Shown piece after piece: positions 27,006 to 36,525 of a stretch of DNA of 64,000 bases (its first letter is position 1; each line of letters begins with the position of its first letter). The notes beneath the pieces were generated by a model, which worked only from the letters and a program-made list of their open reading frames with translations, did no database searches and was not told the origin of the DNA. Made by a program: the position numbers and the translations under genes. Source of the DNA: Spirochaetota bacterium (GTDB taxonomy: Bacteria > Spirochaetota > UBA4802 > UBA5550); NCBI GenBank assembly GCA_963664815.2, contig CAXXHB010000003.1, positions 3,520,001 to 3,584,000 of the forward strand, read 5' to 3'.

Positions 27006-27386
27006 TCAGGGATTATCTCTTTTAGCCGAAGATTGAGTCTCAAGATCCTTGATTCTCTCATTTATCGCTGCCAACTCCTTCTGCATAAACTCCGACTGTT
27101 CTTTCATAATCATCAGTTCATGCTCCGCAGAGTATTCAGAACTTGCATAATCTGCCCCTGCATAATTTGCCATCCTGCAATTTCTCAATCCGCGTCCCCT
27201 GAAAATCATATCGGCTGCATAAGACTGATTCCTCCTGCCTCTGCCGCCGCCTCTTCCAAAACCGGAATATCCACAGCCCCGTACCGGATTAACATATCCC
27301 GGTGCGGAGTAGCCTGCGCAAAAACCTGTTCCCCGCCCTGTCATAGGCCCTGCTCCCATTGGTCCTCTTCCATTTCCTGCCGGCAT
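27006..27386 (-). CDS. DUF5320-family Gly/Arg-rich protein with C-terminal coiled coil
   Basis: MP.G.G.GP.G.GPMTGRG.G.C; AGGAGG RBS; start re-set to ATG 27386. Confidence 0.88.
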   Translation of the reverse strand: MPAGNGRGPMGAGPMTGRGTGFCAGYSAPGYVNPVRGCGYSGFGRGGGRGRRNQSYAADMIFRGRGLRNCRMANYAGADYASSEYSAEHELMIMKEQSEFMQKELAAINERIKDLETQSSAKRDNP

Positions 27387-27408
27387 ATCATGCCTCCTTA
27401 AATTATAG

Positions 27409-27429
27409 TAATGAAAACCATTTTCATTA
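27409..27429. promoter_or_regulatory. Fur-family operator TAATGAAAA-CCA-TTTTCATTA
   Basis: Palindrome upstream of the DUF5320 gene, similar to the box at 27939. Confidence 0.7.
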
Positions 27430-27444
27430 TATCCGCAAAAAAAA

Positions 27445-27909
27445 TTAACCATGCCCCGATTTACAATTACCACATATCCCGTAAAAACTAACCAGGTGAT
27501 CATTTATCTGAAAATTATATTTCTTTGAAAGAAAATCCTGCGTTTTTCCCAGACAGTTAATCTCTTCATCTATAAAATCCTTATAATCAATAATCTTTTT
27601 GCATTTTACGCAGATAAGATGATGATGATGCCCCTTTCCGCCTGGATTGTTAAGCAGCTCAAACCTTGCGTGTCCGTCACCAAAATCAAATTTCTGAACT
27701 ATCCTCATCTGCTCCAGAAGCTCAAGGGTACGATAAATTGTTGTTAATCCGATTTCCGGACTAAGAGAGTGAGCCAGAATATAAATATCAGACGCGCTCA
27801 GATGCTCCTTCGTTTCATTAAGAATATTCAGAACAACTTCCCTTGAAGCTGTTATTCGAATGCTGCTCTGGTTAAACCTGTCCTGCCACCATGGCCCTTT
27901 ACCACGCAA
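27445..27909 (-). CDS. Fur-family transcriptional regulator
   Basis: R.T..R..VL, HLSA..IY, IGL.T.YRTL, HHHH.IC..C, YG.C..C; TTG start with GGAGG. Confidence 0.93.
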   Translation of the reverse strand: MRGKGPWWQDRFNQSSIRITASREVVLNILNETKEHLSASDIYILAHSLSPEIGLTTIYRTLELLEQMRIVQKFDFGDGHARFELLNNPGGKGHHHHLICVKCKKIIDYKDFIDEEINCLGKTQDFLSKKYNFQINDHLVSFYGICGNCKSGHG

Positions 27910-27996: not shown

Positions 27997-28470
27997 TTAA
28001 CCGTAAACATGCTTTCTCTTGAATATATCCATCCGCTTCTGGCAAAGCTGTTCAATTTCCCTCAGGCAATTGCTCATCTCTGCAAAGTGTTCAGATATAT
28101 GCATGTCTGTCTCCAAACAGGTCATCGGCTCAATTATCGCATAGGCCTGAAGAATATATTTTTCCAGTGATAAATCCGTTTCTCGAAGTTCCTCTTCCTC
28201 AGATTGTGATATTTTATCAAAGTTATACTCACCTCCGATGAACCTGTGATCCATCTCCTTTTTCATCCTTTCAGTACGTGTCCTTACCTGAAGCACCCTG
28301 GACATAATTTTTTCCATACCCATCTCTTTTGCTTTTACAAGGCACTCTTCATTTTTCTTAACTATTTTTTCGAATAATGCAGACAGTCTGTTGCGGATAA
28401 TCTCTTCCCCTTCACCAGCCGGGTATTCATTATAACCATTGAAATTATTATACAACATAGATTCGTTCAT
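27997..28470 (-). CDS. hypothetical helical protein (sigma54-driven)
   Basis: GGAGG RBS; downstream of the sigma54 promoter at 28558. Confidence 0.75.
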   Translation of the reverse strand: MNESMLYNNFNGYNEYPAGEGEEIIRNRLSALFEKIVKKNEECLVKAKEMGMEKIMSRVLQVRTRTERMKKEMDHRFIGGEYNFDKISQSEEEELRETDLSLEKYILQAYAIIEPMTCLETDMHISEHFAEMSNCLREIEQLCQKRMDIFKRKHVYG

Positions 28471-28813: not shown

Positions 28814-30124
28814 CTATTCTATATTAAGCTTTTTTATTTTTCTCCACAGAGTTGATGAATCTATACCAAGCTCTTCTGAAGCCTTTGTTTTATTTCCGCT
28901 GTTTTTTTCGAGAGACTTGATAATATAAACTCTCTCCATTTCAGCAAGTGTGAGGTTTTCACTGAAAACTGTTTCAGAATGCCTCAGATGATTGGGGAGA
29001 TTGTTTACCCCGATGTATGCCTCTCTGCACAGAACAAAAGTATGCTCAATAATATTCTCAAGCTCCCTGACATTCCCCGGATAGCTGTAATCCATAAGAA
29101 TATTCATAACCTCATCGGTAACACCCTCAATATTTTTCTCTTTTATAATATTGAATTTTCTTATAAAATGATTAATAAGAAGCGGAATGTCCTCTCTCCT
29201 TGATGCAAGAGTAGGAAGGGTTATATTAATAACGTTAATCCGGTAATAAAGATCCTCTCTGAACCTTCCGTTTTTCACTTCAGTCATAAGATGCTTGTTA
29301 GTAGCCGATATTATTCTTACATCAGACTTCAGAGGCGTTGTCCCGCCTAAAGGCTCATACTCCCTTTCCTGAATAAATCTCAGGAGTTTAGCCTGAATTG
29401 CAGGAGATACCTCACCAATCTCATCAAGGAAAAGAGTACCCCCCTCTGCAAGTGAAACCTTCCCTAGTTTATCCTTTCTTGCATCTGTAAATGCTCCAGC
29501 TTTATATCCAAATAGCTCCGATTCAAGGAGATTGTCAGGTACTGCAGCACAATTTATTGTAACTACAGGTTTTTTACTCCGGTTACTCAGGTGATGAATT
29601 CCCCGTGCAACAAGCTCCTTTCCGGTACCGCTCGGCCCCTCTATAAGAACCGTACTGTCGCTGGTTGCTATATCCGGAAGTATCGTAAAAAGGTCTTTGA
29701 AATATTTACTTTTACTCACTATATCTTCTATGGTATAATTTGATTCGATCTCTTTGCGGAGAACTTCCATATCGGATATGTCTCTGAAAGTTTCCACTCC
29801 CCCTATGATATTTCCATCTTTATTCTTTAGCAGAGCTGTACTGACGGTAATAGGAATTTTATCGCCAAGGGAATTTACAACATAGACAGTTTTATTTATA
29901 ATGTTTCTTCCTGTTGCAAGAGTCTCTTTCAATGCGCATGAGTGTTCACATATACTCGCGTGAAAAACCTCAAAGCAAAGTTTACCGGTGGCATCTCTTT
30001 CATCTATTTTCAGAATTTCAGCAGCTGCCCTGTTTATGGATGTTATTCTGAAATCCATATCGACAGTGAATACACCGTCAGCAATGCTGTTGAGAATAAT
30101 ATTTTTTTCTTCCTGTTCAATCAT
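28814..30124 (-). CDS. PAS-AAA+-HTH sigma54 activator, OrpR-like
   Basis: PAS with C-X8-C-X3-C (CFEVFHASICEHSC), GPSGTGKE, ESELFG..GAFTDA, LFLDEI, PGNVREL, Fis-type HTH. Confidence 0.92.
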   Translation of the reverse strand: MIEQEEKNIILNSIADGVFTVDMDFRITSINRAAAEILKIDERDATGKLCFEVFHASICEHSCALKETLATGRNIINKTVYVVNSLGDKIPITVSTALLKNKDGNIIGGVETFRDISDMEVLRKEIESNYTIEDIVSKSKYFKDLFTILPDIATSDSTVLIEGPSGTGKELVARGIHHLSNRSKKPVVTINCAAVPDNLLESELFGYKAGAFTDARKDKLGKVSLAEGGTLFLDEIGEVSPAIQAKLLRFIQEREYEPLGGTTPLKSDVRIISATNKHLMTEVKNGRFREDLYYRINVINITLPTLASRREDIPLLINHFIRKFNIIKEKNIEGVTDEVMNILMDYSYPGNVRELENIIEHTFVLCREAYIGVNNLPNHLRHSETVFSENLTLAEMERVYIIKSLEKNSGNKTKASEELGIDSSTLWRKIKKLNIE

Positions 30125-30224
30125 AGGTCATCATAAAATAATTATCATTAAAATGCAATAAGAAACAGATATACGATATTATCGGAAAAATATAACGCCG
30201 GAGAAGGGTTTATCAGTCAAAACT

Positions 30225-30386
30225 TCAATCCTTCCAGTTTACTTCAATCTGAATATCAGGAATTTCCCTTTTAACAATTAAAGCGAGTTTCCGGATCTCC
30301 TCTTTGCAGCAGTCGATATCTTTTGCCTTATCAATCCGGTCCATCAGCTCGTCGCTGAATTCTTTTATTGAAATAATCTTTTTCAT
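30225..30386 (-). CDS. small protein with Cys-Cys motif (53 aa, MKKIISIKEFSDELMDRIDKAKDIDCCKEEIRKLALIVKREIPDIQIEVNWKD), below ORF-track cutoff
   Basis: Hand translation; GGAGG RBS. Confidence 0.75.
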   Translation of the reverse strand: MKKIISIKEFSDELMDRIDKAKDIDCCKEEIRKLALIVKREIPDIQIEVNWKD

Positions 30387-30514
30387 CGGAAACCTCCATT
30401 TATTTTAAATAATCTGATATTAATATATTTAATATTTCCAATCAACCTATAATCTGTTAAACTTTAAATATACTTATATATTACCAACTTCATCGAAGAC
30501 ATATGCCCCGGTTA

Positions 30515-31807
30515 CTACGACATCCCCTCCAGTTCTCTTCCGGCGGTAATTGCCGCGATTGTCCCATCGGATACAGATGTTGTTATCTGCCTGTAAGATT
30601 TGTTGATTACATCACCGGCGGCAAATATTCCCGGAATGTTCGTCCTCATATGCTGATCGGTAATTATATACCCCTGATCATCAGCTTCCAGTTTGCCGCT
30701 GAAAAGCCCTGTGTTAGGCCTCATTCCTGCGAAAATAAATACTCCATCCGCGCGGATTTCACGTCGCGAACTGTTTTTTAAATTTTCTATTTCAATCAGC
30801 ATCGATCCGTCAGGCTCCCTTTTAAAAGATCTCGGTTCATGCTCAAATATAAAATCAATTTTATTATTTGAAATTGCTTTTTCCTGTGCCACTTTGTTCG
30901 CCTGAAGTTTATCAAGCTGATGAATTATTGTGACTCTGTCAGCATATTTCGTTATAAACAGTGATTCTTCGACAGCGGAGTTCCCTCCGCCTATTACAAC
31001 AACATGTTTTCCTCCGTAATACTTGGCGTCGCAGGTGGCACAATAGGATATTCCCCTACCCTTATACTCCCTCTCCCCGTCTATCCCAAGCTCCCTGTAT
31101 GTTGAACCTGTTGACAAAATAATCTTCTTCGCTCTGACAGTTTCATATCCATCTACAAGGATCTTTTTTTTAACAAGGTCAACATCCGATACATCAACTG
31201 CAGATCTGAAAACAACGCCGGCTTCTTTTGCCTGTTCATTCATAAAATGAGTAAGCATAAAGCCTTCAACAGGCTTGATAAACCCCGGGTAGTTTGACAC
31301 CATATGCGTTGTTGAAACCTGCCCGCCGGGAAGAGATATATCTACAAGTATTGTGTCAAGCATTGCCTGTGCGGAATATATTCCCGCAGTTAATCCGGCA
31401 GGACCACCGCCAAGTATCAAGACATCACATTCTGTATCAACAGGCTTGATTTTACCTCTGAGTTCTGCTGATTTTTCCTTCGTGAGCATAGATTCAATGT
31501 TTGCGACCAGTTCACTTCTTTTAATCCCGCCGCTGAGCCTCACACCGGTCTCTTTGCCTTTATAAAAGAATAATACAGTAGGAGATGAGGTTACCCCCAT
31601 TTTTTCAGCAAGTGCCCTGTTCTCCTGACGGAATATTTTCAGAAATTTAACGTCATCTCCATAAATCTCACTCAGTGGTTCAAACTTAGCAGCGAGGGCC
31701 TCACAGGGAGGACATTCGGTTGAATAAAAATCAAGAGCAACAGCGCCTCCCCCCAGAACCTCTTGTTCAAAATCCGCCGCGCTTATATATTTAATTTTAT
31801 TATTCAT
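30515..31807 (-). CDS. thioredoxin-thioredoxin reductase fusion
   Basis: N-terminal Trx DFYSTECPPC; GGGPAG, CATCD, GGGNSA, AAGD, QI.T.VSDG.IAA. Confidence 0.92.
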   Translation of the reverse strand: MNNKIKYISAADFEQEVLGGGAVALDFYSTECPPCEALAAKFEPLSEIYGDDVKFLKIFRQENRALAEKMGVTSSPTVLFFYKGKETGVRLSGGIKRSELVANIESMLTKEKSAELRGKIKPVDTECDVLILGGGPAGLTAGIYSAQAMLDTILVDISLPGGQVSTTHMVSNYPGFIKPVEGFMLTHFMNEQAKEAGVVFRSAVDVSDVDLVKKKILVDGYETVRAKKIILSTGSTYRELGIDGEREYKGRGISYCATCDAKYYGGKHVVVIGGGNSAVEESLFITKYADRVTIIHQLDKLQANKVAQEKAISNNKIDFIFEHEPRSFKREPDGSMLIEIENLKNSSRREIRADGVFIFAGMRPNTGLFSGKLEADDQGYIITDQHMRTNIPGIFAAGDVINKSYRQITTSVSDGTIAAITAGRELEGMS

Positions 31808-33120
31808 TGATTTACTCCTTTATTGAAATATAACGATAATCCCATCTCAAGCAGGGACTTCACAGGCCTGCAGTCAGATGAGAGTATTTTACCCGTTTTA
31901 TTCTTGGCCACAGCACCGCATCCTCCGCCGCACAAGAGCTGTGACTCACATTCCCTGCATTCAGGTATGCATGTCACATCACGCTGCTGCCACGTACTGA
32001 TAATATCATCTCTTGAAGTCACCTCCGGGAAAAATGTTCCCAGTTCCTCTCCGGATTTGCCAACGGTAGCAGTGCATGAATATATCTTCCCTGTATAATC
32101 GAAAGCCCATTCGCTTTTACAGGCGGGGCATGAATCAAATAACGGATGTGGAAGCTCACCGTTGTCAAAAAGAAACTTTGAAACTGAAAACAGAGGCCTG
32201 TGAAACTCAAGTATATGAGGATGCTCATTTATAAGTTTATACAGCTTTTCATACAACTCCACCCGTTCAAAAAGTTTTTTATTACCTGCCATACAGTGAT
32301 GCAGTTCATAATTTCTCCCTATCTGTGTTTTAAACAGCGGATTTTGTGTCCATCCCTTTGATATTGCAAAAGATGCAAAATCCGGGAGGTTATCAATATT
32401 CTCCCTGTCTATAACCATTCTGAGATTTATCGGAAACCCGTTTCTCAGAGATTCATCTATACCTGCAACTATACGGTCAAATGTCTCACCCCTGTTTTTC
32501 ATATAGCGCCGTCCGTCATGGACTTCACGCGTACCATCAAGTGTAACCTGTATTTCTCTAATATTCCCCTCAGACAGAATATTCATGTAATCAACCAGGT
32601 TGTAACCGTTTGTAACAACAGCAAGATCCGTTTTTTTCATCGACGCTTTTTCTATAATCATCCGGAGATCATTACGGTTTTTATCGCCCGGAAGAAGCGG
32701 TTCGCCGCCGAATATTGTTATATACTTTTTCCTGCCGATGAATTCCCTTTCTATATAGGCAAAGAAAGCATCCACAGCATGTTCAGTCAATGGCGCCTTC
32801 TCAGGAGCATACCCATCCTGATAGCAGTATGAACAGGCGAAATTGCATTCATAACCAGGCACAAAAAATATCTGTATTTCTGAATTTTCTCTCTCCTCGA
32901 TAAAATCAAGATATGCCAGTTTGTATCTCCGGTTCTCATCAGATTCATCTGAGAGATATCCCTTTGCAGCATACTCTTCCATGTCTGAATATTCACCCTT
33001 AATTACTTCGGCGGCTTTATCGGGAGTAAGAATATCAGCATTCCGGGACAGGGAATTAAGAATAAAATAATTCTCCGAATCTGCCAGTTTTCCAAATATA
33101 TTATGTTTTGAAAATTTCAT
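31804..33120 (-). CDS. radical SAM/SPASM-domain protein, putative peptide maturase
   Basis: CNFACSYC, FGGEP, TNG, TLDG..HD.RR; SPASM C..G.IYSC...C..CRECESQLLCGGGC...C; ~80-aa N-terminal extension (possible RRE). Confidence 0.92.
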   Translation of the reverse strand: MKFSKHNIFGKLADSENYFILNSLSRNADILTPDKAAEVIKGEYSDMEEYAAKGYLSDESDENRRYKLAYLDFIEERENSEIQIFFVPGYECNFACSYCYQDGYAPEKAPLTEHAVDAFFAYIEREFIGRKKYITIFGGEPLLPGDKNRNDLRMIIEKASMKKTDLAVVTNGYNLVDYMNILSEGNIREIQVTLDGTREVHDGRRYMKNRGETFDRIVAGIDESLRNGFPINLRMVIDRENIDNLPDFASFAISKGWTQNPLFKTQIGRNYELHHCMAGNKKLFERVELYEKLYKLINEHPHILEFHRPLFSVSKFLFDNGELPHPLFDSCPACKSEWAFDYTGKIYSCTATVGKSGEELGTFFPEVTSRDDIISTWQQRDVTCIPECRECESQLLCGGGCGAVAKNKTGKILSSDCRPVKSLLEMGLSLYFNKGVNQ

Positions 33121-33153
33121 ATTATTATCACCTATCCGTGTTCAGCTAAGATT

Positions 33154-33188
33154 CACGGGGTGCCGGGTTTTTAACCCGGTCCCCCGTG
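33154..33188 (-). promoter_or_regulatory. strong GC stem-loop right after the peptide stop (mRNA-stabilising or attenuating)
   Basis: CACGGGG-ga-CCGGGTT-aaa-AACCCGG-ca-CCCCGTG; no U-tract. Confidence 0.7.
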
Positions 33189-33192
33189 CCTG

Positions 33193-33288
33193 TCAATCGT
33201 GACATCCCGCCACTATTGTAGAAATCTTTGCACAACATTGTGCAACCCTGGAATCCGCCGATTCCTTTTTCCTTATCAGACTGTTCAT
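33193..33288 (-). CDS. putative RiPP precursor peptide, 31 aa MNSLIRKKESADSRVAQCCAKISTIVAGCHD
   Basis: Hand translation; AAGGAG RBS; immediately upstream of rSAM/SPASM; basic leader plus Cys-containing core. Confidence 0.8.
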   Translation of the reverse strand: MNSLIRKKESADSRVAQCCAKISTIVAGCHD

Positions 33289-33339
33289 AATTTGAACTCC
33301 TTATATATTCACCGGCCTTATTGCCGGGTGTATACCATT

Positions 33340-33987
33340 TTAAATATTTTTAAAACCTGTTATCGTCCAGCTTGCCACATCGATCATCCCCTTGGAGTAT
33401 GGTACCGATTCTTCAATAATTCTGATATCGGCAAAACCCGCTTTTTCAAGTGATTCAAGATATTCACCGCGTGTAACCGATCCGGCCCAGCACTCCGCTA
33501 CAGCCTGCGGATCATTCCTGTATTCATCCGGCACTGGCAGGATTGAATATATATCACTTACAATAAATCTTCCCCCGTTTTTAAGAATCCTGTATATACT
33601 GCTCCAGACTCTGTCCTTATCCTCCGCATGGTTTATTGTGCAGTTTGAAATAACAACATCTGCAATTGAATCACCAAGCTTTATATCTTCCAGTTCCGAT
33701 CTTATAATAGCGGCATTCTTTATATCAAATTTTTTGATGAGCTCCTCAGCTTTTTCAATCATCCCATCGGATATATCCACCCCATAGGCGAAGCCGCTTT
33801 CCCCGGCCATATCCGCCAGTCTTACAACATCGTTTCCTCTGCCGCTGCCAAGATCAACACATACCTCGCCTGCTTTTACACCTGCATGATTTATTGCCCC
33901 GCCGCATGAAAGACAACATGAACTCTGTGACAGTGATGAATAACGCTGATTTATAGTTTTCAGCTGTATTTTCTTATATTCACTCAT
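33340..33987 (-). CDS. ArsM (arsenite methyltransferase)-like SAM methyltransferase
   Basis: SSCCLSCG, GE..VDLGSG.G.D, DVVISNC.IN, ECWAG. Confidence 0.8.
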   Translation of the reverse strand: MSEYKKIQLKTINQRYSSLSQSSCCLSCGGAINHAGVKAGEVCVDLGSGRGNDVVRLADMAGESGFAYGVDISDGMIEKAEELIKKFDIKNAAIIRSELEDIKLGDSIADVVISNCTINHAEDKDRVWSSIYRILKNGGRFIVSDIYSILPVPDEYRNDPQAVAECWAGSVTRGEYLESLEKAGFADIRIIEESVPYSKGMIDVASWTITGFKNI

Positions 33988-33988
33988 T

Positions 33989-34405
33989 TCATTTCTCCAT
34001 TGCCTGTGTTAAATAGATCAGCCCGTTTTCTACAGTATTCAATTCATCATCACGCAGCTGCATTTTGATCTTTTTTTCGCATTCATTTTTAAGTTTTATA
34101 AACGCTTTATGTTTTTTTATTCCCTCTTCGCTGAGCGACAGGTGAACAAACCTTCTGTCATCACTGGTTTCTGAGCGTTCCAGCAGATTTTTTTCAATCA
34201 TCTGATCTACTATCCTGCTCACCCTTGACGGAGAAAGCTTATTCCGTTCAGCCAGCTCATTGCCGTTTATCATCTCGCCGGGTTTTATAGAGAGAAGTAT
34301 AAAGGATTCCGGCCTGGTTAAGTTTTCATTTTTAAGCGTATCCTCGTTGAGGCTGTAGCATATATCACTAAGGTGTAGAATCGTTTCAATTATGTTAATC
34401 TCCAT
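33989..34405 (-). CDS. MarR-family transcriptional regulator
   Basis: LT..E..IL, ELA....S.SRVSRIVD, DDRR...L.L...G; start re-set to ATG 34405 (AGAGGA). Confidence 0.9.
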   Translation of the reverse strand: MEINIIETILHLSDICYSLNEDTLKNENLTRPESFILLSIKPGEMINGNELAERNKLSPSRVSRIVDQMIEKNLLERSETSDDRRFVHLSLSEEGIKKHKAFIKLKNECEKKIKMQLRDDELNTVENGLIYLTQAMEK

Positions 34406-34426
34406 AATATTTTCCTCTGTCAATAA

Positions 34427-34466
34427 TTGTTATTAACAAATATAATCAGTGAGTACAAAAAGTCAA
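34427..34466 (-). promoter_or_regulatory. sigma70-like promoter (TTGACT-16-TATATT) overlapped by palindrome TTGTTA-T-TAACAA (MarR operator candidate)
   Basis: Seen directly upstream of the MarR gene. Confidence 0.55.
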
Positions 34467-34678
34467 GCAATATGTTAAGTATTTTATAATTTTATTAAAT
34501 AATCAATATTTCGCAACTTCCCCCCATAAATAATACAAATATTTCAATATAATCTTAATTTCTAATAAATCAGAATTTGGCATAGCTGTAATTTAAAGGG
34601 AAAGTAATAATGAGGCCATACAGATTCATTATAAATATTATTGCAGGGGCGGCACCTGGATTTGTTTATTACAAATTT

Positions 34679-34873
34679 ACTTTCAGCTTTTCAATTTAAC
34701 TCTCGAGTTTTTCTATCCTATTAACTAACTGTAGAATTAACTCAACAACCGCATCTTTACCGAGATCATAAATTATTTCAGCATCTTCTCGTTTCATGAA
34801 ATATACTATATAATATGATTTTTAAATTAATAGAAAAAATATTTCCCCGGTTTTTTATAGCTGAGTAGTTAAC
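34679..34873 (-). mobile_element. IS66-like left-end remnant with truncated transposase N-terminus (34696-34797)
   Basis: MKREDAEIIYDLGKDAVVELILQLVNRIEKLES*; end motif GTTAACTACTCAGC resembles IS66 termini. Confidence 0.5.
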
Positions 34874-34980: not shown

Positions 34981-35331
34981 CTATTTTTTACTCTTCCGGT
35001 TTTTTTTATCCTTATAATTCAGGTCTGTAAAAAGTATTTCTGCCTGCTCCATGGCTATCCGAAGAGCATCACACCCTTTATCAGTAATATTATAATATTT
35101 TCTGATTTTACCCCCGACATTACAATCTTCATGAAGGAGGTAACCCTTGTTTTCAAGGCCATGAAAAGTATTGTAAAGAGTGCCGTATGATAAATGATAC
35201 CCTGCCTCTGTAAGGTGTTCATGAATTTCCTTTCCGTATACAGGTTCTTTTTTTGCGTATTGGAGAATATATATTTTAATAAATCCGAGAAGAAATTCAT
35301 GTTTCATTACATCAGCCATAGGTGTCTCCAT
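34981..35331 (-). CDS. PadR-family transcriptional regulator
   Basis: GFIK..IL, YG, S.GTLY...H.LE..G, RKYY..T..G. Confidence 0.9.
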   Translation of the reverse strand: METPMADVMKHEFLLGFIKIYILQYAKKEPVYGKEIHEHLTEAGYHLSYGTLYNTFHGLENKGYLLHEDCNVGGKIRKYYNITDKGCDALRIAMEQAEILFTDLNYKDKKNRKSKK

Positions 35332-35526
35332 AAACTAACATTTTCAGTAACTGTTTAAAAAACATGAGTAATTAAGGTTTTCCCGCGCTTATGACGCGGA
35401 GATATATTCCACCACCGGTTTTTGAGTGAACACTTTTTTAAGATAAAAAAGCCAGCTCCCCTGCATCTGAAATGGCGGGGATAAGGCAAATGTGCCATAA
35501 TTATTCAACAAAATCAAGTTCTTTCT

Positions 35527-36525
35527 TTATTTCACTACTGAGTCTGGTTTTTCCGCTGACGCAATTTTTTCAGGTCTGCTGTCAAATTTTCCGGATACGG
35601 CAAATGGAATATTATACTCCTGCGAAGCGTTCCATAAAATAAAACCGTTCACCCCTGCGTCATTAACAGCTTCAATCTGTTTTTCAATATATTTCTCATA
35701 ACTGAGCCCCGATCTTTTTACCTTCATACGGAATGCCTGTATCCATGGGACGATGATACTGTTTTTTACGCGTTTTTTTGCATCAACTGAAGTCAGATGA
35801 ACGGTATAATAAGGATCAGCCATCATTTTTCTGCTCCATGTATAATGTGAAGGATAAGCCATGGGGCATATTACGTTGACCACTTCATCGAGAACCTCCA
35901 TCTTCTGCCCTATGGGATCATCAATATTAAGCGGGATTCGGCCGAAAACATCAACAGCTATCCGCACATTATATTTTTTAAGGCGGTCGCTGAATTTCGC
36001 TACAACTGATTTTATTATCTGGTATTTTTCTTTTATTGTGATATTCTTTAAGATTCCATGATCATTGAACCTTATATAATCGAGCTGGATCTCTTCGAAA
36101 CCGGCCTGACACGCCTCCTCGGCAATAGACAGTCGTTCTTCAAGAAACTCAGCTGATACAGGATACTTTTTAAGACCATCCGGAAACATTACAACCCTTG
36201 CTATTGTGTGAAATCCGTTCTGGGTGCAATATTCCACATTTTTTTTCGGAGTAACAGCCCTGTTCATGGCAGAAGTCTGTACATCTATAACCACTGTATT
36301 AAGTCCCGAAGATTTAGCCCTGTTTATAAAACCGGACAGCTTTTCAAAGTTTCTCCCCGATTCACTGTTAAGATAAAATCCCTTATAAAACTCCGGATAT
36401 TTAAACTCTTTTTTATCACTCTTTGCCTCAGTGAGTTCAACAGCATTTGTTGAACTCCTTATAAAAAACATTGCACCGGCAACAGCAAGAATTAAAACTG
36501 AACCTATTATGATTTTTTTATTCAT
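35527..36525 (-). CDS. putative glycoside hydrolase (DUF4015-like TIM barrel)
   Basis: N.VVID, IARVV.F.D, GF.EIQ.DYIRF, DVFG, IGQ, PM.YPSHY, PWIQ.F, .WN. Confidence 0.8.
   Translation of the reverse strand: MNKKIIIGSVLILAVAGAMFFIRSSTNAVELTEAKSDKKEFKYPEFYKGFYLNSESGRNFEKLSGFINRAKSSGLNTVVIDVQTSAMNRAVTPKKNVEYCTQNGFHTIARVVMFPDGLKKYPVSAEFLEERLSIAEEACQAGFEEIQLDYIRFNDHGILKNITIKEKYQIIKSVVAKFSDRLKKYNVRIAVDVFGRIPLNIDDPIGQKMEVLDEVVNVICPMAYPSHYTWSRKMMADPYYTVHLTSVDAKKRVKNSIIVPWIQAFRMKVKRSGLSYEKYIEKQIEAVNDAGVNGFILWNASQEYNIPFAVSGKFDSRPEKIASAEKPDSVVK

Follow-up and report, generated by a model that had tools for sequence, protein, structure and literature searches.

The subject of this analysis is a run of six genes in a 64,000-nucleotide stretch of DNA from a Spirochaetota bacterium (GenBank assembly GCA_963664815.2, contig CAXXHB010000003.1), the whole of which we refer to as the window. 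At the centre of the run are a 31-residue cysteine-containing peptide, a radical S-adenosylmethionine (SAM) enzyme with a SPASM domain (hereafter rSAM), an ArsM-like methyltransferase and a fusion of thioredoxin (Trx) to a thioredoxin reductase-like flavoprotein (TrxR). The evidence presented below supports their interpretation as a new conserved peptide-modification cassette, of which we infer the chemistry and any role for metalloids. All six open reading frames (ORFs) lie on the minus strand, head to tail, and span positions 30225-34423 of the window (Table 1). An initial annotation, made from the letters of the DNA and a list of its ORFs, had placed six co-oriented genes here, with a single nucleotide between the regulator and the methyltransferase and an overlap of 4 nt between the rSAM and Trx-TrxR genes. 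The six ORFs are indeed found at those positions, with domain calls that agree, and the coordinates bear out both the lone base (33988) between the MarR stop and the methyltransferase start and the overlap (31804-31807).

Table 1. Genes and candidate regulatory features of the cassette, with positions in the window and the basis of each assignment.
Feature	Position	Strand	Basis
MarR-family regulator (138 aa from ATG; the ORF list has a TTG start at 34423)	33989-34405	minus	Pfam
Short ArsM-like SAM methyltransferase, 215 aa, six conserved Cys	33340-33987	minus	NCBIfam, PDB sequence matches
31-aa precursor-like peptide, MNSLIRKKESADSRVAQCCAKISTIVAGCHD	33193-33288	minus	ORF, tblastn, alignment
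Radical SAM/SPASM enzyme, 438 aa, N-terminal RRE-like domain (residues ~1-55)	31804-33120	minus	NCBIfam, Pfam, PDB sequence, fold
Trx (CPPC) fused to TrxR-like flavoprotein (CATC), 430 aa	30515-31807	minus	NCBIfam, Pfam
53-aa protein, invariant Cys-Cys pair (DCCK), loosely linked accessory	30225-30386	minus	Homolog search, structure model
Promoter-like site TTGACT-16-TATATT, upstream of the MarR gene	34439-34466	minus	Motif score
Candidate MarR operator, conserved AATAACAATTATTG block	34421-34434	minus	Alignment with L001-L004
Stem-loop between peptide and rSAM genes, without U tract	33154-33188	minus	Folding against shuffles

Neither the peptide nor the 53-aa protein at the end of the run matches a family in Pfam or NCBIfam. 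A cysteine-rich ORF of 31 codons directly before the SPASM enzyme had been proposed in the initial annotation, and it is confirmed by a ribosome-binding site, AAGGAG, which precedes its ATG at 8 nt, and by selection at the level of the protein. The last 16 codons exist in 76 distinct DNA versions, over which the entropy at the first, second and third codon positions is 0.25, 0.37 and 1.38 bits, respectively, and the invariant residues of the peptide are encoded by all of their synonymous codons. Such a pattern marks selection that acts on a protein once translated, and the translation and conservation of the 31-aa gene are in our view strongly supported. Alignment of 69 distinct peptides finds nine invariant residues (M1, A16, C18, C19, A20, K21, G28, C29 and H30) and a further four (K7, Q17, S23 and D31) that are at least 90% conserved. 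The consensus runs from MKSLIKKK through a variable linker to VAQCCAKxSxxVxGCHD and the stop codon, so that the layout is one of a conserved N-terminal leader, M-x-S-L-I-K/R-K-K, followed by a core, AQCCAK-x-S-x4-GCHD, that ends the protein. The spacer between the peptide and rSAM genes can form a hairpin of -31.4 kcal/mol (z -4.73), and none of 200 shuffled sequences folds as well; the structure is recurrent: out of 68 homologous spacers with a length of 30 nt or more, 49 fold with z of -2 or lower, each compared with 30 mononucleotide shuffles.

The gene that follows the peptide encodes a radical SAM protein (PF04055, 71.9 bits) that is single-copy in its own genome. Its CX3CX2C motif, at Cys92, Cys96 and Cys99, is conserved in 100% of 81 sequences, as are SPASM cysteines 276, 331, 349, 388, 391, 397, 401 and 417, with Cys334 kept in 91%. 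This number of cysteines fits a SPASM domain for two predicted auxiliary clusters, and the fold matches those of CteB, anSME and SuiB. The best NCBIfam relatives of the enzyme are maturases of cysteine-containing peptides, and all of them score far under their cut-offs: CefB (NF038107) at 145.8 bits against 600, TIGR04463 at 113.9 against 525, PapB (NF047865) at 105.8 against 340 and the SCIFF maturase (TIGR03974) at 84.7 against 425. Among solved structures CteB (5wgg) is the best match both in sequence (E 2.4e-12) and in fold (template modelling score 0.67, fold E 2.6e-17), with anSME, ChlB and SuiB further down.

Ahead of the barrel, an AlphaFold model of the enzyme (predicted local distance difference test, pLDDT, 83.1) places three strands (residues 7-11, 18-22 and 27-31) and two helices (33-41 and 47-52), which make up the domain that resembles a recognition element (RRE) of peptides that are made by the ribosome and modified post-translationally (RiPPs). 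When the enzyme was modelled together with the peptide, the interface score ipSAE was 0.82 (0.83, 0.82 and 0.80 in individual runs) against 0.02 for the best control; the mark applied to this score is reached by 58 of 80 solved complexes and by 2 of 110 mismatched pairs. From run to run 42% or more of the contacts recur, with a pLDDT of only 44-48 for the peptide. The confident contacts join residues 1-6 and 8 of the peptide to residues 19-20, 26-32, 35, 49 and 53 of the enzyme, and also to 317-323 and 428-438. These models support the view that the conserved N-terminus of the peptide is a leader which would dock as a strand on the RRE-like domain, and the enzyme is of the leader-dependent peptide-maturase type.

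Upstream of the peptide lies the methyltransferase, for which the best NCBIfam model is that of arsenite methyltransferase (NF008823, 169.5 bits, below the cut-off of 263) and the best PDB sequence matches are the arsenite methyltransferases 5evj (E 5.5e-22) and 4fr0. The alignment to the solved ArsM covers residues 73-247 of a chain of 387, that is, the catalytic core only, without the C-terminal domain. It is the only ArsM-like gene in its genome, in which no gene passes the ArsM cut-off. Six cysteines (Cys24, 25, 28, 43, 116 and 166) are 97-100% conserved in 69 sequences, and three of these, Cys28, Cys116 and Cys166, align with the arsenic-binding cysteines of the GCG, SNC and EC-x-x-G motifs of solved ArsM. 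Arsenite methyltransferases bind arsenic through four conserved cysteines (Cys44, 72, 174 and 224 of CmArsM), according to excerpts of PMC6138428. The adjacent Cys24 and Cys25 could supply the fourth, in which case one or other would be the putative equivalent of CmArsM Cys44. The same excerpts describe As(GS)3 as the preferred substrate, handed over by thiol transfer, and the reduction of a pentavalent intermediate through a disulfide cascade, with Trx proposed as the reductant of the resulting disulfides (PMC6138428). AS3MT is reported also to methylate its own cysteines (PMC9013690).

The fourth partner combines a Trx domain (PF00085) with a flavoprotein domain (PF07992), and scores 323.3 bits against the TIGR01292 model, for which the cut-off is 343.45. 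Both of its CxxC pairs, CPPC in the Trx part and CATC in the TrxR part, are kept in 73 of 76 fusion sequences. In TrxR the HRRD (HRRxxxR) element is the motif for the 2'-phosphate of NADPH, and at the HRRD position 72 of the 76 TrxR parts carry H-Q-(F/L)-D instead. Because of this replacement the electron donor of the fusion may be NADH or ferredoxin rather than NADPH.

To follow the cassette beyond the window, one genome per species was scanned, which gave at least 407 encoding contigs, and the best 80 loci (L001-L080) were used for comparison. A second scan, of metagenomes, was seeded with a second-tier rSAM and yielded at least 339 relatives, from which 80 loci were kept, 44 in tier 1 and 36 in tier 2, the latter defined by an rSAM 37-44% identical to the window enzyme. 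The wider rSAM family is large: a word-indexed search returned 3,595 of 8,000 scored candidates at E of 0.001 or lower, the best 120 of which are all at least 58% identical, and an exhaustive search of representatives found 17,783 proteins at that threshold and 555 at 1e-30 or lower. After clustering at 50%, the close relatives merge into one representative and the next tier begins at 30-44% identity. By label the best 80 genome loci comprise 49 from Bacteroidota, 21 from Spirochaetota, seven of Ignavibacteriota type, and one each labelled Deltaproteobacteria, Hyphomicrobiales and unclassified.

The peptide travels with the enzyme through this set, as had been predicted of rSAM homologs if the pathway were real. 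In 77 of the 80 genome loci tblastn locates the ORF of the peptide a short way upstream of that of the rSAM, ending in AQCCAKxSxxxxGCH(D/N) and a stop codon, and the peptide is present in 43 of 44 tier-1 and 30 of 36 tier-2 metagenome loci. Three genome loci stand apart. In L021 and L059 a DUF6132 gene occupies the position of the peptide, and L024 meets the edge of its contig there; no version of the peptide with an in-frame TGA (selenocysteine) was found in these three loci when three frames were read. The six tier-2 loci without a peptide match are on short contigs or have a gene order that would place the peptide about 3 kb upstream. In tier 2 the core reads QCC[AS]K-x-S/A-x4-GCH[D/N], with 20 of 30 peptides ending in D and 10 in N, and 26 of the 30 have an extra Cys-Cys pair upstream. 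The order of genes also varies in several tier-2 loci (for example peptide-TrxR-methyltransferase-rSAM), and in some the distance between the peptide ORF and the rSAM gene is as much as 3 kb, or the two are on opposite strands.

Joint occurrence was counted over the 70 loci in which the rSAM gene is flanked by 3.5 kb or more on each side. The methyltransferase, the peptide and TrxR occur together in 43 of 44 genome loci, 14 of 15 tier-1 and 11 of 11 tier-2 metagenome loci, 68 of 70 in all, which also answers the earlier expectation that the methyltransferase and the Trx-TrxR protein should co-occur with the peptide and its enzyme. In one protein of 792 aa (P0159) the rSAM/SPASM enzyme is fused to an ArsM-like domain that is 33% identical to the window methyltransferase (E 9e-34) and carries its own CC, GCG, SNC and C-x-x-G cysteine motifs. 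The sequence comparisons thus show four genes co-inherited tightly across a deep divergence. The identity of the partners also rises with that of the rSAM (Spearman 0.70 for the methyltransferase, n 124, and 0.51 for Trx-TrxR, n 119), but as a sign of co-evolution this correlation was set aside, being mostly shared ancestry. Two further fusions, P0129 and P0140 (727 and 708 aa), join an rSAM to DUF5714, which is a separate gene right after the rSAM in seven tier-2 loci (for example L143:1645-2436) and goes unmentioned in the literature searched; a profile scan for DUF5714 in the genome of the window matched nothing, as did its positive control.

A census of neighbours, in which the genes of all 160 loci were clustered and the cluster representatives scanned with Pfam, describes the company that the cassette keeps. 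The most frequent families are thioredoxin (58 loci), DUF302 (42), small membrane cysteine proteins of DUF6132 (38) and DUF1847, in some cases fused to rhodanese (24), followed by YgaP-like transmembrane proteins (23), OsmC (20), SQR-like flavoproteins (17), and NifX-like proteins and Crp/Fnr regulators (16 each), with ferredoxin-type proteins (13), rhodanese (7) and a Grx-Trx protein (5) more rarely. No protease or peptidase, exporter or immunity gene is among the conserved neighbour clusters.

Taken together, we consider it probable that the locus is a RiPP-like cassette for peptide maturation that is passed on as a unit and stands in this organism under a MarR repressor; its function would be linked to thiol or metalloid chemistry. 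In the proposed scheme the rSAM/SPASM enzyme would abstract a hydrogen from the core of the peptide and crosslink the peptide internally. The likeliest bond would be a thioether in which one of the invariant three cysteines is attached to a carbon of a side chain, and the acceptor that we favour is the C-terminal Asp/Asn. A thioether is our best guess because all near relatives of known chemistry make this bond and because the C-terminal Cys-His-Asp/Asn offers a donor and an acceptor; we hold it tentatively, at slightly less than an even chance. The ArsM-like enzyme would then methylate either a soft trivalent metalloid held by the remaining thiols of the peptide or one of those thiols itself. 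The first option is suggested by analogy with the hand-over of As(GS)3 and the second by analogy with the automethylation of AS3MT, and between them we lean only slightly to the metalloid. Disulfides formed in the methyltransferase cycle could be re-reduced by the Trx-TrxR fusion. The product would most likely stay inside the cell, where it might handle thiol, sulfur or metalloid stress rather than serve as an antibiotic, since there is no conserved protease or exporter, the peptide is nearly invariant and the neighbours belong to thiol and sulfur redox metabolism.

Several observations weigh against this scheme, or against parts of it. The rSAM falls far below the cut-off of every curated thioether maturase and may therefore carry out another chemistry. 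In the complex model the leader is placed with confidence and the core is not, and as a leader complex of CteB has already been solved, the docking score may in part reflect likeness to CteB and is no proof of binding. Two of the genome loci, L021 and L059, have the rSAM and TrxR genes with neither peptide nor methyltransferase within reach. The metalloid branch in particular finds no ars gene among the conserved neighbours of the 160 loci, where the conserved regulators are of the MarR or Crp/Fnr type and none is of the ArsR type. The genome's own Acr3/ArsP-type locus (2005495-2009484), in which Acr3 (453 bits) lies beside an ArsP_1-type permease and a small Thioredoxin_3 protein, is 1.5 Mb from the cassette. 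With no linked ars family and the Acr3/ArsP_1 genes at that distance, a reading of the locus as an arsenic island was ruled out. The genome also encodes a GshA-type protein (433 bits), and because such a gene is present the peptide would not be needed as a substitute for glutathione, an idea which is weakened accordingly.

The boldest form of the metalloid branch would make the cassette the first ribosomal-peptide pathway built on metalloid chemistry. Here the crosslinked Cys-Cys...Cys peptide would be an obligate carrier or acceptor for the ArsM-type enzyme, giving a peptide-bound methylated arsenic (or an antimony or selenium species) or a peptidyl carbon-metalloid bond, in which case the bound metalloid might trap the carbon radical made by the rSAM, by analogy with the chemistry of ArsS and ArsL. 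We regard this as unlikely. Somewhat in the spirit of mycofactocin and PQQ, the peptide might instead be the precursor of a cofactor, its GCHD end crosslinked, trimmed and methylated to give a small redox or thiol cofactor cycled by Trx-TrxR. The extreme conservation of the peptide across phyla, with an invariant C-terminus, speaks for such a role, as conservation of this kind is typical of cofactor precursors such as MftA and PqqA and not of antibiotics, and the RRE-rSAM-SPASM architecture with its dedicated reductase would suit it as well. However, the 160 loci have no peptidase among their conserved neighbours, no conserved partner dehydrogenases were found, and the conservation takes in 16 residues and the leader, well beyond the last two or three residues, all of which makes the cofactor a distinctly unlikely outcome in our estimate. 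It is also conceivable, if improbable, that two modules are merely adjacent, a self-sufficient arsenite methylation pair of ArsM-like enzyme and Trx-TrxR and a separate pair of peptide and rSAM. ArsM with Trx/TrxR is already a complete known system in the excerpted text of PMC6138428, and the order of the genes does differ in several tier-2 loci. A chance adjacency sits poorly, however, with the presence of all four genes in 68 of the 70 loci with enough flank, even where the rSAM is only 37-44% identical, with the fusion of rSAM to methyltransferase in P0159 and with the absence of the methyltransferase from the loci that lack the peptide (L021 and L059); nor are any ars genes linked, and the sole ArsM-like gene of the genome scores under the family cut-off.

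Two further explanations take the peptide itself in other directions. It could be a secreted antimicrobial or signalling RiPP, either a bacteriocin of ranthipeptide or sactipeptide type or a quorum signal, given that the nearest characterised enzymes make thioether RiPPs and that a hairpin between precursor and maturase genes, as seen here, is common in RiPP operons. Against this, none of the conserved neighbours is an exporter, a leader protease or an immunity gene, and the companions are cytoplasmic redox enzymes. The core, unlike that of bacteriocins, hardly changes over three or more phyla, and we judge a secreted product to be very improbable. The tandem Cys codons, with a strong hairpin between them and the gene that comes next, also recall a cysteine-sensing leader peptide, an attenuator that would control expression of the rSAM rather than serve as its substrate. 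We give this almost no credence and rejected it, because the whole core and GCH(D/N) are conserved as amino acids and not only at the Cys codons, the hairpin has no U tract, the tier-2 ORF can stand as much as 3 kb away from the rSAM gene or be encoded on the opposite strand, and the N-terminus of the peptide is modelled as docked on the enzyme.

The first gene of the cassette and the DNA before it indicate how it may be regulated. The MarR protein scores above the Pfam gathering thresholds of both PF12802 (42.5 bits, threshold 27) and PF01047 (39 bits, threshold 24.6). Its start is more likely to be the ATG at 34405, which has GAGGAA 5 nt upstream (34416-34411), than the TTG of the ORF list; that TTG falls inside the conserved operator-like block. 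Among the best 80 genome loci a MarR homolog heads the cassette in 20 of the 21 labelled as spirochaetes and in none of the other 59. As to the 'one promoter and operator' of the initial annotation, the TTGACT-16-TATATT site matches at 10 of 12 positions, the joint best score in 30050-34700 (two plus-strand sites also reach 10 of 12), and both hexamers are kept in the four nearest relatives, L001-L004. The adjacent block, which lies a little downstream of the -10 hexamer, has inverted arms of 5 bp (AATAA/TTATT), and its ATAACAAxxATTG columns vary little or not at all between the window and the same four loci. The region has 16 promoter-like sites and shuffled versions have 14.1, not an excess, and because the density is no higher than in shuffles the site is a plausible candidate promoter and operator and not a proven one. 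The idea of one promoter and operator is thus supported in part.

The last gene in the run, encoding the 53-aa protein, begins 128 nt after Trx-TrxR. The initial annotation had counted it as a sixth member of the pathway; the gene is present and its Cys-Cys pair is invariant, but the linkage is loose, with homologs in 10 of the 80 genome loci and in 2 of the 80 from metagenomes. Since these relatives carry the gene at varying distance and on either strand, although directly after the rSAM gene in the tier-2 loci L096 and L097, it need not be co-transcribed, and it is a linked, facultative accessory. A sequence search returned 11 proteins, the window's own included, all of them unnamed or hypothetical. 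The model of the protein (pLDDT 92.9) is a beta-alpha-alpha-beta arrangement in which the invariant Cys26-Cys27 begin helix 2, and it has no fold match in the PDB at E of 0.001 or lower.

Further genes around the cassette may be noted. Directly downstream, at 28814-30124, is a sigma-54 activator with a PAS domain that is PrdR-like (352.5 bits against a cut-off of 795), a homolog of which (74% identity) lies near the cassette in L005 only. The flanks at 27006-27909 and 34981-36525 encode a DUF5320 protein, a FUR-family regulator, a PadR regulator and a DUF4015 putative glycosyl hydrolase. An ORF of 157 aa at 27997-28470 has no Pfam match, and another of 33 aa (34696-34797) is in the AT-rich gap of 550 nt between the PadR and MarR genes. 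In 21 Bacteroidota loci (for example L023:4843-5280) a 145-aa zinc-ribbon protein of IS1595 type is encoded on the opposite strand upstream of the cassette, and its conservation in this position suggests a domesticated regulator rather than a transposase. Two loci, L037 and L038, are contigs of one metagenome-assembled genome of Bacteroidales, each with a copy of the peptide-rSAM pair, in the orders TrxR-peptide-rSAM and methyltransferase-Trx-peptide-rSAM; the cassette may be duplicated in this organism, or the bin may be mixed.

The cassette is widespread, being present in at least 407 species-level genomes, mainly of Bacteroidota, Spirochaetota and Ignavibacteriota, and on at least 339 metagenome contigs. 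The peptide gene is usually unannotated, and the enzymes bear labels that are generic or contradict one another, among them 'arsenite methyltransferase', 'UbiE' and 'radical SAM protein'. It follows from the reading of the locus as a peptide-maturation cassette that many of the environmental 'arsM' matches in anoxic habitats may belong to a peptide pathway and not to plain arsenite detoxification, and, if so, the reading of arsM gene counts in arsenic biogeochemistry would be affected. Two of the rSAM homologs are named from apparently cultured species, Spirochaeta isovalerica and Marispirochaeta aestuarii. The cassette would add a new, physiologically oriented branch to radical-SAM peptide chemistry, beside SCIFF, whose function is likewise unsettled, and it offers a compact four-gene system in which to study, in anaerobes, the coupling of ribosomal peptides to thiol redox and possibly to metalloids.

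With respect to known systems, the initial annotation could match the combination of genes to no RiPP class, and this still holds: neither NCBIfam (release 20) nor Pfam has a model for the peptide or for this clade of enzyme, and no NCBIfam model reaches its cut-off. A search of full-text literature found no description of the cassette, although supplements and subscription-only papers were outside its scope and a prior description is possible. A term search of the main text of a RiPP-mining paper on Bacteroidales (PMC10352776) found no mention of thioredoxin or arsenite.

The methyltransferase shares with ArsM and AS3MT (CmArsM, 4FR0, 5EVJ) the SAM fold and the aligned cysteines, and its pairing with Trx-TrxR parallels the dependence of ArsM on a thioredoxin system that is described in the excerpts of PMC6138428. 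It differs from ArsM in having an additional conserved cysteine, Cys43, and a compressed CCxxC, and in never adjoining ars genes in the 160 loci. The pairing of a radical SAM enzyme with an ArsM-type methyltransferase is also seen in ArsS (arsenosugar) and ArsL (arsinothricin), a likeness to which the initial annotation had drawn attention. The cassette enzyme, however, differs from both in having an RRE and a full SPASM domain and in pairing with a ribosomal peptide. No family named for ArsS or ArsL is among the best 25 of its 70 NCBIfam matches, and the RRE-SPASM architecture and peptide partner rule out membership of an organoarsenical pathway of that type.

Mycofactocin (MftA/MftC) and PQQ (PqqA/PqqE) resemble the cassette in their small invariant peptide with a critical C-terminus and in their RRE-rSAM-SPASM enzyme; the mycofactocin rSAM model gives 57.2 bits, far below its cut-off, and PqqE is among the fold matches. 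Unlike these systems, the cassette has no conserved peptidase and no downstream set of tailoring genes across the 160 loci. The thioether-forming SPASM enzymes QhpD/QhpC and CrpC/CrpA act on intracellular, non-antibiotic targets, although their substrates are larger proteins than the cassette peptide. CrpC, from an archaeal system, combines an RRE with SPASM and installs ranthionine crosslinks, and the abstract of PMC13692751 reports no methyltransferase or Trx-TrxR partner for CrpC/CrpA.

The best NCBIfam relatives, namely PapB (freyrasin), CefB (Cys-every-fifth) and TIGR04463, act on peptides with repeated cysteine motifs, in contrast to the single short core of the cassette peptide. PapB links Cys to the side chain of Asp, and enzymes of the NxxC type make Cys-Asn links. 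The invariant C-terminal Cys-His-Asp/Asn of the cassette peptide would fit a Cys-Asp link of the PapB type. The cassette is not filed under SCIFF, PapB, CefB or TIGR04463, because it misses the cut-off of each. Its closest analogue is nevertheless the ranthipeptide system SCIFF/CteB (ScfB) of Clostridia (TIGR03974; 5WGG/5WHY), in which an RRE-rSAM-SPASM enzyme likewise stands beside a short conserved cysteine peptide. To our knowledge SCIFF systems have no dedicated exporter or protease, and we know of none with ArsM-like methyltransferase and Trx-TrxR partners. The cassette peptide, for its part, has three cysteines in another motif, its enzyme scores 84.7 bits where the SCIFF maturase model asks for 425, and its hosts belong to other phyla.

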